From contig CAUQJW010000001.1 in assembly GCA_963518485.1 (NCBI GenBank), forward strand, positions 1 through 43,953: 43,953 nt of DNA, given 5' to 3'. Under the pieces are notes generated by a model. The model was not told the DNA's origin. It made no database searches and was given only the letters and a program-made list of their open reading frames with translations. A program made the position numbers and the translations under genes. The stretch comes from an uncultured Campylobacter sp. (GTDB lineage: Bacteria; Campylobacterota; Campylobacteria; Campylobacterales; Campylobacteraceae). This document shows positions 10,118 through 15,922 of the stretch, piece after piece (within the stretch, counting starts at the first letter, position 1; every line of letters begins with the position of its first letter).

Positions 10118-10915
10118 TCAATCTAACTTATTTATATCTAAAATCCTGCGCCTAAAAAGGTCAAAATTCGCGTCGAGTTCGCTTTTGCGGTTTATAGAAA
10201 TTTCTATAAATTCCCGCTCTTTTTCGATGCCGATGAATTTTCTCCCGAGTAAATTCGCCGCGATACCCGTCGTCGAAGAGCCGGCAAATGGATCGCAAAT
10301 CACGCTATTTTCGTTGCTCGCCATCAATATAAGCCTTATCAAAAGAGAAAGTGGCTTTTGTGTAGGGTGCTTACCGCAAGCCTTTTCCCACGGCGCTATC
10401 GCAGGAAAGCTCCAAACGTCTTTCATTTGCTTATCGTCGTTTAGCTTTTTCATCAGTTCGTAGTTGAAAATATGCTTAAATTTCTCGCTTTTTCTTGCCC
10501 AGATTATTTGCTCGGTGCTATGCGTGAGGTATCGGCAGCTGAAATTCGGCGGCGGGTTGGTCTTTTGCCAAGTGATGATGTTTAAAATTTTATAGTCTAA
10601 CTTTTGCAAAGCGCGCCCGATCGAAAAAATATTGTGATACGTTCCGCTTATCATTACGCTACCGTTGTCCGTGAGCGTATCTTTGGCAAGAGCGAGCCAT
10701 TTAATATTAAATTTATCTATCTCGTCAATACCGCAACCCTTATCCCAATCGCCTTTATTTACGCTTACTATTTTTCCGCTTTGGATGCTAAGCCCGTCGT
10801 TTGAGAGAAAATACGGCGGATCGGCAAAAATGAGGTCAAACTCTCCCTTAAATTTAGGCAAAATTTCAAAACAATCGCCTTTAAAAAGCTTAAAATCATC
10901 GGATAGCTTAAACAT
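10118..10915 (-). CDS. Beta-class N6-adenine/N4-cytosine DNA methyltransferase, DpnA-like (likely GATC)
   Basis: FADPPY (motif IV) N-terminal; HPTQKP and DPFAGSSTTG (motif I) C-terminal; SVNKGDWD and WQKTNPPPN typical of DpnA; overlaps the REase stop. Confidence 0.9.
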   Translation of the reverse strand: MFKLSDDFKLFKGDCFEILPKFKGEFDLIFADPPYFLSNDGLSIQSGKIVSVNKGDWDKGCGIDEIDKFNIKWLALAKDTLTDNGSVMISGTYHNIFSIGRALQKLDYKILNIITWQKTNPPPNFSCRYLTHSTEQIIWARKSEKFKHIFNYELMKKLNDDKQMKDVWSFPAIAPWEKACGKHPTQKPLSLLIRLILMASNENSVICDPFAGSSTTGIAANLLGRKFIGIEKEREFIEISINRKSELDANFDLFRRRILDINKLD

Positions 10916-11729
10916 TTTTAAGCTCTTTTACGAAATAATGAAGCGTGGCAAGATTATAAATTTTAACGCTTTTGTAGGCCTCTTCAATCTTGTTTTTAGC
11001 GGCACGCCAGCCCTGTCCGTCCGTTATCCAGACAAATTTATATCCGCTGCAAAGCGAGATTTTTTGCGCTATTTCGATGTAAGATCTTGCGACTTCATTT
11101 AGCTTCGAGCCGCCCGTGCTGTAAAAATTCGCCTCTATCAGATATGTTACGCCGCCCGCGGCTATAACGAAATCAAAAATCTTTTGATCGCTTCCTAAAT
11201 TTAGAGCGAATTTTTTGCTACTAACTTCGGTTTGAAAGCCGATATTTTCACTCTTTTTAAGCAAAATAAAGAGTGCTTTGATACGCTAAATTTGCTCATT
11301 GCCGTTCGCGATAAAAACACGGACGCAGTCGCGGCAAGCGGCGAACTAACGAGGCTGAAAGCGTATTTTGAAAGTCCAGAAAAAATTTATGAGTTTTGCA
11401 AAGAAACGGGACTGGATAAAATTTTTATGGATGCAAAGATAAAAAATTTACACGATTACGTGTTTGGCGTGGAAGTCGGACTCGATACGAATGCGCGGAA
11501 AAATCGCGGGGGCGTAAATTTCTCGCAGACGGTTTCAGAGTATTTTAAGAGTGAAAATATCGGTTTTCAAATCTTTTGAACCGAGTAAAAAATCAAGCGT
11601 ATGAAGCTTGATAGAAACGGCTTTTAGATTTTCGCCGCATTTGTCAAAGTCGGTAAAGTAGCTAAGGCTCGCGTTCGTCTTTCTAAGCGAGCGTAAGAAA
11701 TCGCTAAAATTCGTTAAATTCGGTTCCAT
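10908..11729 (-). CDS. DpnII/MboI-family type II restriction endonuclease, interrupted here by an internal inversion (273 aa when re-inverted)
   Basis: N-part on minus (11535-11729), middle on plus (11232-11579, with FGVEVGLDTNARKNRGG), C-part on minus (10908-11264, with FDF..IEANFY..GGSKLNEVARSY..FVWITDGQGW); N- and C-parts share one frame; span 822 bp. Confidence 0.9.
11231..11255 (+). repeat. Left inverted repeat of invertible segment
   Basis: TTTGAAAGCCGATATTTTCACTCTT; reverse complement matches 11547-11571 at 24/25. Confidence 0.97.
11547..11571 (-). repeat. Right inverted repeat of invertible segment
   Basis: Plus strand AAGAGTGAAAATATCGGTTTTCAAA; single mismatch with the left repeat (11238 vs 11564). 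Confidence 0.97.
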
Positions 11730-11736
11730 AAAATCC

Positions 11737-11928
11737 CTATAATTTAGTTTTCGGCTCGTCCGCGATCGTCGTTTTAAAGTCTGTACAAACAAAGTCCTCC
11801 GCACTCAAAACGATCTCGCTGTTTTCGTAAGCCGCCCGGGCGATCTTACACGCTTCTTCTTTATTTTTCGCTTTAATAACGACTCTTCTCGCCGAGGTTT
11901 CGACGATCTCTACTTCAAATTCTTTCAT
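11737..11928 (-). CDS. DpnD/PcfM-like small protein
   Basis: FEVEIVET..R.V.IKA...EEA......Y.NSEIVLSAEDF matches the DpnD/PcfM family pattern as recalled; TAATG overlap with the upstream gene. Confidence 0.75.
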   Translation of the reverse strand: MKEFEVEIVETSARRVVIKAKNKEEACKIARAAYENSEIVLSAEDFVCTDFKTTIADEPKTKL

Positions 11929-12638
11929 TAAATTCCCATAGGAATTTTACCGATTTCGCTCTCTTTTTCGTACTGCTTTACGATATCTTCATAGCAAGCA
12001 AACTTTACCTTTTTGCTTATACTTTCATAAATACTATCTTTTAAAACGCCGTCAAATTGCTTTTTTCTTTGCAAATCGGCTACTATAAACATTTTGGCGT
12101 TAAAGTCTTGAAGTTCGTAAAATTTATTTAGAGAGTTTTTAAAGTCGGTACTGTGTTCTACCTCATAAAACGCATCGGGCAAATTTCTGCGATTAAACCA
12201 TATTGCATCGACGTTTTTTGCTTTATTTACGATGTTTTCATAGCTGAAGTTATAAATTTCTTTTAAAGTCGTTAATTCGGTTAATTTTTTATTAAGATAA
12301 AGCTTGTTTTTATCTTGCACCGGTACATATGTCTGAAAATTCCTTAGATTCCCAATCTCTACGATAATACCTTGATAATATGCGTGAGTAAAACTCGGAT
12401 TTATTCCGCTTTTACCATCGCCGGTTTTGGCCGTATTTTGCGCCTCAAAATCCTTAAGCCCCCAAAGCCCAGATCTAATTTTATAAAATTCTTTATTAGT
12501 TTGCACTATACCTCTTATACTAGCAAACGGAGTTTTCGTCCCCCATTTGCTAGTATCGGTCTTAGCGTAAAGTTGCGAGAAAGTAGCCATACCGCCGAGA
12601 TTAGCTAAAGCCTCTATAACGCATTGCTTTTGCGTCAT
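11928..12638 (-). CDS. N-terminal winged-HTH (HARE-HTH-like) + PD-(D/E)xK-type nuclease, putative restriction enzyme
   Basis: N-terminal EAL..LGG.A....LY...KTP.ASIR....GLWGL; C-terminal VDAIW...[10 protein letters not shown]-richer than flanks; ATGA overlap with carB. Confidence 0.65.
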
Positions 12639-15600
12639 CCAAGATACTCCTGCAAGCTTTTTACTTCCAGCGCGCTGCCGTCTTGTACGCTTTTTAGCGA
12701 TTTAGCCGCCGCTAGAGCCGCCGACATCGTCGTGAAATACGGGATCTTAAACCGCATGATGTTTTGTCTAATTTTCTTGCCGTCCTCGCTGTTTGACTTG
12801 CTATCGCTGGTGTTGATGACAAGCGCGATATCACCGTTTTTGAGCTTGTCCTCGACGTTTGGTCGACCTTCGCTGATCTTATAGACAAACTCGCTCTCTA
12901 CGCCCGCTTCATTTAAAATTTTATACGTTCCGCCCGTGGCGATGATTTTAAAGCCGAGACTTATTAGCTCGCGCGCCAAATTTGCGGCGTATTTTTTGTC
13001 TGCGTCGGCAAGAGTCAAAAAGACTAATCCGCTTGTCGGCAGCGAGTTGCTCGCGGCGATCTGGCTTTTAGCAAAGCTCTTGGCAAAGCCCTCGGAGATA
13101 CCCATCACCTCGCCCGTACTTTTCATCTCAGGACCTAGGATCAGATCTGCGCCTGATAGCTTGTTAAACGGAAAGACCGCCTCTTTTACGCAGACGTGGT
13201 TTTTCACGCGAGGCTTGAGTATGCCGCGCTCCTCGTAAACTGCGCCGTAGTTGTCGTAAAATTTAAGCGCCTCGCGCAAATCGCCTTGCCACATCACGCG
13301 CGTGGCGACCTTTGCCATAGGCACGCCCGTCGCCTTGCTAACAAACGGTACCGTGCGGCTGGCGCGCGGGTTTACCTCGATCATGAAAAGTTCGTTCTCG
13401 TAGATGGCAAACTGGATATTCATAAGTCCAACGACGCCCAAATTTAGCGCGATGTCACGGGTTTGGTTTTCTACCTTTTCGATCATCTGCGCGGTCAAAT
13501 TTAACGGAGGCAGTATGCACGCGCTGTCGCCGCTGTGGATGCCCGCCTCCTCGATGTGCTGCATCACGGCGCCGATATAGACATCCTTGCCGTCGCTGAT
13601 CGCGTCTACGTCGAGCTCTACGGCGTCTTGTAAAAATTTATCGATTAGTACGGGCGAGTGGTTGCTGACCTTGACCGCCTCGCTCATATATAGGCGTAGT
13701 TCCTCGTCGCTGTGCACGCGTCTCATCGCGCGCCCGCCTAGCACGTAGCTAGGGCGCACGAGTACCGGATAGCCGATAGCGGAGGCCTTTTCTAGCGCCT
13801 CTTTTTCGCTTGTCGCAGTGTCGTTTCGCGGCTGTTTGACGCCTATTTTAGAGATAAATTCGCTAAATTTTTTGCGGTCCTCGGCGACGTCGATCGTGCG
13901 CGCGCTGGTGCCGATGATTTTCGCGCCGGCTATGCTTAGGCGTTTAGCGAATTTTAGCGGAGTCTGGCCGCCGAAATGCACGATCACGCCGTCTGGGTTC
14001 TCGTGCTCGATCACGGCTCTAACGTGCTCAAAATCAATCGGCTCAAAGTACAAAATATCGCTCGTATCGTAGTCGGTGCTGACGGTTTCTGGGTTGCAGT
14101 TGTACATTATGGTTTTGACGCCCATGTCGCGCAGCGCGTAGCTAGCGTGCACGCAACAGTAGTCAAACTCGATGCCTTGGCCTATGCGGTTTGGCCCGCC
14201 GCCGATGATCATCACTTTTTTCTCTTTTTGCGCCGAATTTGAGTTCAAATTTGACTCCGCAAAATTTGACGAAAGATGCGGTAGCTTGGTGATATTCGTC
14301 GTCGAGTAAAGATACGGCGTGAGCGCCTTAAACTCGCCCGCACAAGTATCTACTTCGTTGTATTCGAGGTTTATGCCCATTTTCTCGCGCGCGAAATATA
14401 TATCGTTTTGACCCAGGTCGAGATTGTCTTTTAAATTTATCAGATGCGCGATCATCTTGTCCGAAAAGCCCATCGTTTTGACCTCTCTTAGCAGCGGCTC
14501 GTCGTTTAGGATATCCATATCGATGCGCTCTTCAAATTTAACTATCTGCCAAATTTGATCCAAAAACCACGGATCGATCTTGCTCATCTCGTGCACCTCA
14601 GCCACGCTAAGCCCGTCTCGAAACGCCTGCGCGACATATAAAATGCGGCTTTCGTTCGCGTTTCTAAGCCCGTAAACAAGCGCGTTTTTCTCCAAATTTA
14701 CGAAGTTAAATCCGTAATAGTCCTTTTCCATAGAGCAAAGCGCCTTTTGGATACTTTCCTTAAACGTCCTACCGATCGCCATCACCTCGCCCACGCTCTT
14801 CATCGCGGTGCCTAGATACGGGTTCGCGCCCGGGAATTTCTCAAACGTAAAGCGCGGGATCTTGGTCACGATGTAGTCGATGACCGGCTCAAAGCTAGCA
14901 GGCGTGCCCGTGATATCGTTTTTGATCTCATCTAGACTAAAGCCCACGGCTAGTAGCGTCGCGACCTTGGCGATCGGGTAGCCCGTGGCCTTTGACGCCA
15001 GCGCCGAGCTGCGGCTCACGCGCGGGTTCATCTCGATCACGATCATACGGCCGGTTTTTGGATTTATAGCAAACTGCACGTTGCTACCGCCCGTATCCAC
15101 GCCGATCTCGCGTAAAATTTTAAAGCTAGCGTCTCGCATCGCCTGATACTCTTTGTCAGTTAGCGTAAGAGCGGGTGCAACCGTGATACTATCGCCCGTA
15201 TGCACGCCCATGGGATCAAAATTTTCGATCGAGCAGACGATGATACAGTTGTCGTTGCGGTCGCGGATGACCTCCATCTCGTACTCTTTCCAGCCTAGCA
15301 AGCTCTCCTCGACCAAAATTTCATGTATCGGGCTGGCGTCCAGGCCGGTTTGGGCTAGTTCTTTAAATTCGTCGATATTATACGCCACGCCGCTACCGGC
15401 GCCGCCAAGCGTATAGCTAGCGCGGATGATGAGCGGAAAGCCTATGTTTGCGGCTGCGGCTAGCGCCTCGTCCATGTCGTAGGCGTACTGGCTTTGCGGC
15501 AAGTCCATATCGATCTTTTGCATCGCCTTTTTAAACTCCTGCCTATCCTCGCCCTTTTTGATCGCTTGCGGGTTCGCACCTAAAAATTTGACGCCGCCGA

Positions 15601-15922
15601 GCATGTCCGCCTCATATAGCTGCATCGCGACGTTTAGCGCGACCTGACCGCCCATCGTAGGCAGTATGGCGTCGACTTTTTCCTTATCTATGATGCGTTT
15701 GATGCTCTCTTTGGTTATCGGTTCGACGTAGGTAGCATCGGCGAAATCGGGATCGGTCATGATGGTGGCCGGGTTTGAGTTAATGAGCACTACGCGGTAG
15801 CCCAGCTGCTTTAGCGTCTTTGCGGCTTGCGTGCCGCTGTAGTCAAATTCGCACGCTTGGCCTATGACGATAGGGCCGCTGCCGATGAGTAAAACGGTGT
15901 TGATGTCGGTTCTTTTTGGCAT
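12635..15922 (-). CDS. carB: Carbamoyl-phosphate synthase large subunit
   Basis: [24 protein letters not shown]; duplicated ATP-grasp domains; MGS domain. Confidence 0.99.

Follow-up and report, generated by a model that had tools for sequence, protein, structure and literature searches.

A conserved reversible switch in a Campylobacter DpnII-family endonuclease gene and its probable inversion by XerH at dif-like sites

An endonuclease gene carrying an inverted segment

The DNA analysed here, hereafter the window, is a 43,953-nt stretch from an uncultured Campylobacter sp. At one locus it carries an endonuclease gene in three pieces, a methyltransferase gene and a pair of inverted repeats, as follows.

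10118..10915, minus strand: N6_N4 (beta-type) DNA methyltransferase (PF01555, E 5e-58; PADLOC MTase_II, E 3e-100)
10908..11238, minus strand: 3′ piece of the endonuclease gene (Pfam DpnII positions 170-273, including the conserved FD...ExNFY...SKLNE stretch)
11231..11255, plus strand: left inverted repeat, site B (difH-like core at 11233-11250)
11239..11563, plus strand: invertible segment of 325 bp, both spacers included, lying in the OFF orientation in the window
11547..11571, minus strand: right inverted repeat, site A (difH-like core at 11552-11569, both arms perfect)
11564..11729, minus strand: 5′ part of the DpnII-family endonuclease gene, with its ATG at 11729
11928..12638, minus strand: upstream 236-aa ORF, NmeDI_C-like putative nuclease (Atlas PF27126, score 0.98; weak PADLOC REase_II match)

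Three ORFs match Pfam DpnII in order: the first (minus strand) covers positions 1-54, the second (plus strand) 49-162 and the third (minus strand) 170-273. The middle of the endonuclease is thus encoded by the invertible segment, whose strand is the reverse of that of the rest of the gene. In this OFF form, the endonuclease frame runs into a stop at 11535 and specifies a peptide of only 64 aa. When the segment is flipped back in silico, a single open frame of 273 codons extends from the ATG at 11729, which is the length of the intact endonuclease gene in the relative G007. The methyltransferase gene is intact, its start overlaps the last codons of the endonuclease gene, and it is probably the cognate methylase. 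The locus thus has a PF04556 endonuclease beside an adenine methyltransferase, the arrangement of Type II restriction-modification systems of the DpnII/MboI family, for which GATC would be the expected specificity. GATC occurs at 0.77 of its expected frequency in the 1.63-Mb genome that contains the window, the fifth lowest value among the 16 palindromic 4-mers, although this proves nothing about specificity.

The 236-aa ORF is an exchangeable slot outside the switch: two of the four runs closest to the window (X3 and X5) carry other DNA in its place, and G005 carries a 211-aa ORF. In several genomes the restriction cassette lies directly downstream of carB (window positions 12635-15922; L025), and in G180 it follows lon; wherever this could be observed, it precedes the EamA gene.

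The two repeats (11231-11255 and 11547-11571) are each 25 nt long and complementary at 24 of 25 bases, and the same genome has no other inverted pair reaching 24/25 whose arms are separated by 50-1000 bp. Each contains a dyad around a 6-bp centre. At site B, the outer arm TGAAAG and the inner arm TTTTCA flank the spacer CCGATA (11239-11244); at site A, the core reads TGAAAA-TATCGG-TTTTCA, with its spacer at 11558-11563. The two cores are 319 bp apart, lie in opposite orientation and are both within coding sequence. The dyads and the identical, oppositely oriented spacers described in the initial annotation are thus present in the DNA, and its remark that the window holds no recombinase gene was upheld: tblastn with 57 collected tyrosine recombinases gave no match in the window, and none of its 51 ORFs matched a recombinase family in Pfam.

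Orientation of the segment among relatives

Of 325 genomes in the family, 86 have DpnII, and we listed 48 genomes of the clade that carries the element. Six were set aside: G024, G230, G133 and G146, in which contigs end at the locus; G158, in which it is decayed; and G148, a candidate ON genome whose contig repeats the 3′ flank at either end of the segment. That contig (L078, G148:C25) contains both an ON and an OFF junction, and is probably a chimera assembled from mixed forms or strains. In the remaining 42 genomes both sites are on one contig, and the segment is OFF in 34 and ON in eight. All carrier relatives that have names are Campylobacter, including a C. gracilis MAG.

The two orientations are scattered over the phylogeny. 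A tree of the middle segment requires seven orientation changes, as does a tree of the 3′ piece, and shuffled labels require a mean of 7.4-7.6; moreover, middle segments of identical sequence are found in both states. Near-complete genomes in the two states have exact reciprocal junctions. None of the 40 full-length rows contains an internal stop (G086 and G130, which have 1-2-base indels, were excluded from this count), and close pairs of OFF alleles have a pN/pS of 0.13-0.14; hence, OFF alleles are under purifying selection.

Metagenome contigs and assembly breaks bear on the same question. Of 38 metagenome contigs, some of them from the same assemblies as the genome set, 18 are OFF, 10 are ON, five end at a site and five are unrelated. 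These calls were corrected by eye, since the 16 ON calls made by script included the five unrelated contigs and one OFF contig with an indel. The G097 assembly, broken at both sites, consists of 1.84-Mb and 55-kb contigs and a third of 301 bp that contains nothing but the segment; that of G137 is likewise broken at both sites, and contigs of G024, G090, G172, G229 and G235 stop at or close to a site. Such breaks may reflect the effect of mixed orientations on the assembler. In the four runs closest to the window, out of 21 listed, the contigs are OFF in every case with no joint at the sites; this is not evidence that the ON form is absent, because contigs drop rare variants.

A supplementary table of Chanin et al. 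(PMC10028968, file 4) lists an intragenic inverton of C. gracilis that spans 341 bp (22-bp repeats separated by 297 bp), for which long-read orientation counts in two samples were 50:4 and 2:333. The element in a named C. gracilis record (L156) has the same dimensions (341/22/297), and the published inverton is apparently this element, the match being by species and geometry. A homologue of the gene occurs in 23 other genomes among 300 sampled from the order; none of the homologues examined outside the carrier clade has the sites, and the plasmid collection that we searched contains no match to the element. We conclude, with near certainty, that the element is a conserved reversible ON/OFF switch.

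The paired sites and their likeness to difH

The spacers of sites A and B are identical to each other in all 42 genomes, across five variants (CAGATA, CCGATA, CAAATA, CTGATA and CGGATA), and in all 22 metagenome contigs that have both sites in register. The varying spacer base is synonymous at site A and specifies Cys, Gly, Ser or Arg at site B. The arms are less uniform: the last base of the outer arm differs between the sites (A or G) in 37 of 41 genomes, and the inner arms are mismatched in some clades. The outer-arm difference remains with the flank and the inner-arm differences move with the segment; therefore, the exchange takes place within the spacer plus 2 bp. There is one exception, the assembly of G090, which has the site-B base on the outer arm of site A and would not be expected from strict crossover in the spacer. 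The clade that is most distant (71% identity) retains only a 19-bp core of the repeat.

Synonymous codons are invariant at 7 of 10 positions within the sites versus 15 of 86 elsewhere, a comparison that overstates the constraint because the genomes are kin and not independent. The base-read core (defined below) occurs in none of 38 distinct outgroup DpnII loci (42 rows, four of them duplicates). Constraint on the protein was considered as the source of the repeats and rejected: outgroup enzymes have other residues at both places, and since the outgroup genes lack the core and encode different residues, the needs of the protein do not explain it. We also rejected a promoter as their function. 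A sequence of the form TTGAAA-17-TAAAAT spans the OFF junction (11570-11542), but such sequences number five against 4.1 expected, and the −10 part is absent from the most distant clade. The sites behave as a tyrosine-recombinase substrate, and we consider it very likely that a tyrosine recombinase flips them.

The arms TGAAAA and TTTTCA are matched at 12 of 12 bases in site A and at 11 of 12 in site B. The genome containing the window has two copies of the exact 12-base dyad. One is site A and the other is the genome's own difH, an AT-rich sequence at C116:4779 with a core matching that of published Campylobacter difH; allowing at most one mismatch, the dyad occurs at 37 places. Since exact dyads occur one to nine times per genome in all 45 genomes searched, a single match is uncommon but not unique. 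The difH core TGAAAA-N6-TTTTCA given in the initial annotation agrees with the sequences in Table 2 of PMC2731167 and Table 2 of PMC3325230.

The crystal structure of XerH shows that the inner five bases of each arm, at positions 7-11 and 20-24, are read base-specifically (PMC5241119). By our numbering these bases are TGAAA and TTTCA, and they are kept at both sites in the window. All ten base-read positions are intact at seven places in this genome, among them the two switch sites and its own difH. The common A/G difference in the arms falls on position 12, which according to the structural description is not read by XerH (PMC5241119). Among the 42 relatives, 12 carry a change at a position read by XerH in one inner arm, and one clade with two such changes is still found in both states. 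The first spacer position is a conserved C at all sites of the 42 genomes; a C-to-G change at this position in H. pylori was reported to cut recombination from 9% to 1% (PMC3325230).

A scan with a difH matrix had been set in advance as a test on which the dif-like reading might fail. Using a matrix built from 12 distinct difH sites of relatives, we found that on the core site A ties with the genome's own difH at rank 1 and site B takes rank 3 of 3.24 million positions, and the reading was not refuted. Over 30 bp the likeness is much weaker: the switch sites score about 5 bits versus 46.4 for the own difH, with site B at rank 21 and site A at rank 28. The left-arm base T4 is absent from both sites, which have A or G instead, in whichever direction each is read, and with it the asymmetry between left and right arms that marks difH. 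In H. pylori, changes to T4 were reported to nearly abolish recombination, and sites with right arms only recombined at 1.3% versus 9.9%. Furthermore, whereas difH is a single intergenic copy at the replication terminus, the switch sites are paired, intragenic and located 0.57-0.79 Mb (568-785 kb) from dif in all five near-complete genomes. Because they depart from difH in T4, in position and in copy number, we do not regard them as difH proper.

The spacer of the switch differs from that of the own difH at four of six bases. Tyrosine recombinases generally require homology between spacers, a rule reported also for Acinetobacter pdif sites (PMC9947245), and a spacer so unlike that of difH would be expected to keep the switch from recombining with it. 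In G047, a mid-chromosome difH (L129, G047:C1:911090) has the unusual spacer CAAATA, and its 18-bp core is identical to the switch cores of G007, G063, G130 and G135.

The candidate recombinase and comparison with known systems

The genome containing the window encodes a XerH orthologue (E 2e-94 to PDB 5jjv), and XerH is the only tyrosine recombinase common to all 11 genomes that we clustered. This is weak evidence for its involvement, because these genomes all encode XerH, whether they carry the switch or not. No recombinase gene was found near the switch, either in the window or in five 20-kb neighbourhoods, and the locus therefore lacks a dedicated recombinase gene of the fim or hsdS type. 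A serine resolvase was rejected as the invertase, being present in only 9 of 30 genomes. There is precedent for action at a distance: in H. pylori, pairs of difH placed 525 and 647 kb from dif were reported to recombine in a XerH- and FtsK-dependent manner (PMC3325230). According to a review, C. jejuni XerH binds either half-site alike (PMC5357621). In the 11 orthologues shown, R or G occupies the position of K290, the residue with which H. pylori XerH contacts T4. This residue change and the half-site binding may soften the objection raised by the missing T4. Gly is found at this position in g19 genomes (L173, L174 and L197) and Arg in g1 genomes.

The initial annotation had proposed that XerH or a relative acts in trans on two dif-like sites. 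Recurrent inversion, tyrosine-recombinase behaviour, the difH core, its matrix rank and the presence of XerH in all carriers examined fit this reading; the absence of T4, the score of about 5 versus 46 bits over 30 bp and the inner-arm deviants (12 of 42) do not. Weighing these sequence comparisons together, we consider it likely that XerH, acting in trans, flips the switch.

The same switch might instead be operated by another tyrosine recombinase, a prophage or satellite integrase that recognises difH-like arms. We regard this as unlikely, although it would account for the missing T4, and genomes have between 2 and 17 tyrosine recombinase matches each. A case in point is a satellite-like element (L143, G006:C13:76000-88000), which encodes a 406-aa integrase, an antirepressor-like protein and small ORFs, and which at its far end (site 10659) has a full difH-like site with T4 and the spacer CTAAAC. 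It possibly uses or mimics XerH sites, and its difH-like core is also found near an integrase in G096, G023, G109 and G130. At 35% identity, one loose cluster of recombinases spans 8 of the 11 genomes. However, G097, G129 and G229 lack this cluster, and in two of these three genomes the assembly breaks at both sites; at 40% identity no cluster other than XerH is present in more than 4 of the 11. Moreover, the core does not vary across two GTDB genera that have different mobile integrases.

It is also improbable that flipping is independent of any recombinase, as in RecA-type exchange or template switching during replication, with the likeness to dif a by-product. With repeats of 25 bp here and of 22 bp in the C. 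gracilis group, such a process would have something to act on, and any repeated exchange could homogenise the spacer. However, perfect identity extends over at most 12 bp in the largest distant clade, and the mismatches that persist are confined to the arms, the spacer having none. Such a process would not require an internal dyad, yet the conserved unit is the exact difH core, which in its base-read form is missing from the outgroup loci described above. Very improbable, and largely refuted, is a single old gene-killing inversion or an assembly artefact: the excess of OFF alleles, the decay or errors at a few loci (G158, G086 and G130) and the four runs with OFF alone are in its favour, but it is contradicted by the seven changes on the tree with identical segments in both states, by purifying selection on OFF alleles, by exact reciprocal junctions in near-complete genomes and by the published long-read counts of both forms in single samples for what is apparently this element (PMC10028968).

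In the mechanism that we propose, XerH, the housekeeping chromosome-dimer resolvase, would bind both difH-like cores in trans and exchange strands within the identical 6-bp spacers, inverting 325 bp, the middle third of the gene. The ON orientation would yield the 273-aa endonuclease and the OFF orientation the 64-aa stub, with the methylase gene whole in both. A low rate of flipping by XerH would be expected because the sites keep the base-read core without the outer left-arm determinant, and such weak sites would fit a rare flip. We infer XerH catalysis, a low flip rate and dependence on FtsK. The switch may serve as bet-hedging, dividing cells into those that restrict and those that are permissive to DNA, or it may relieve the cost of the nuclease. 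We think it reasonably likely that XerH doubles as a chromosomal invertase at two sites that arose within coding sequence, with the rate of restriction switching set by weakened copies of dif and gated by FtsK at cell division; other orphan invertons of Xer-bearing bacteria may follow the same pattern.

If this is correct, a few point changes within coding sequence were enough to enlist a core recombinase of chromosome segregation for phase variation, and no gene had to be gained. What looks like a restriction pseudogene in most assemblies of these Campylobacter species would be a live switch, and subpopulations would present unequal barriers to phage and incoming DNA. Intragenic invertons are widespread and their invertases mostly unknown, according to the authors of PhaVa; the element described here names one candidate enzyme. 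In the literature that we searched, which covered few subscription journals, no paper links XerH to inversion or describes the switch, and a 21.7-kb supplementary file of Milman et al. contains no match.

The switch shares with XerH/difH of Campylobacter and Helicobacter, as far as the published sites and structure describe it, the core, a 6-bp asymmetric spacer and a C at its first position (PMC2731167, PMC3325230, PMC5241119). Its outer arms resemble difH's right arm, and its carriers have XerH. In contrast to difH, it consists of two inverted intragenic sites without T4, far from the terminus, and its product is an inversion rather than a resolved dimer. Ureaplasma mba provides a parallel for inversion of phase-variable loci by a distantly encoded, Xer-named tyrosine recombinase (‘XerC’), but the putative dif site there was reported to be bound by CodV instead, so that identity of invertase and dimer resolvase is unsupported in that system (PMC3599477). 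In invertible restriction-modification loci, such as hsdS invertons and Type IIG/BREX systems, programmed inversion likewise alters a restriction gene; those inversions are described as swapping specificity domains, usually with a recombinase gene nearby (PMC9881135), whereas the switch silences the endonuclease alone in an orthodox Type II system of two genes and has no recombinase nearby.

Pairs of pdif sites on Acinetobacter plasmids are similar in that paired sites of the host Xer system, with identical spacers, are reported to undergo reversible inversions (PMC9947245). Those inversions occur on plasmids, between modules, through the two recombinases XerC/D (PMC9947245), whereas the switch is chromosomal, lies within a gene, would use a single recombinase and has ON and OFF states. 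The switch also works like the premature-stop intragenic invertons of Chanin et al. (10.1101/2023.03.11.532203; PMC10028968), in which both repeats lie in one gene and one orientation truncates the product. The invertases of those intragenic invertons were not identified; the text of that report mentions neither Campylobacter nor Xer, and the C. gracilis row is without comment (PMC10028968). What is new beyond that work is the conservation of the switch across species and a candidate enzyme for its inversion.
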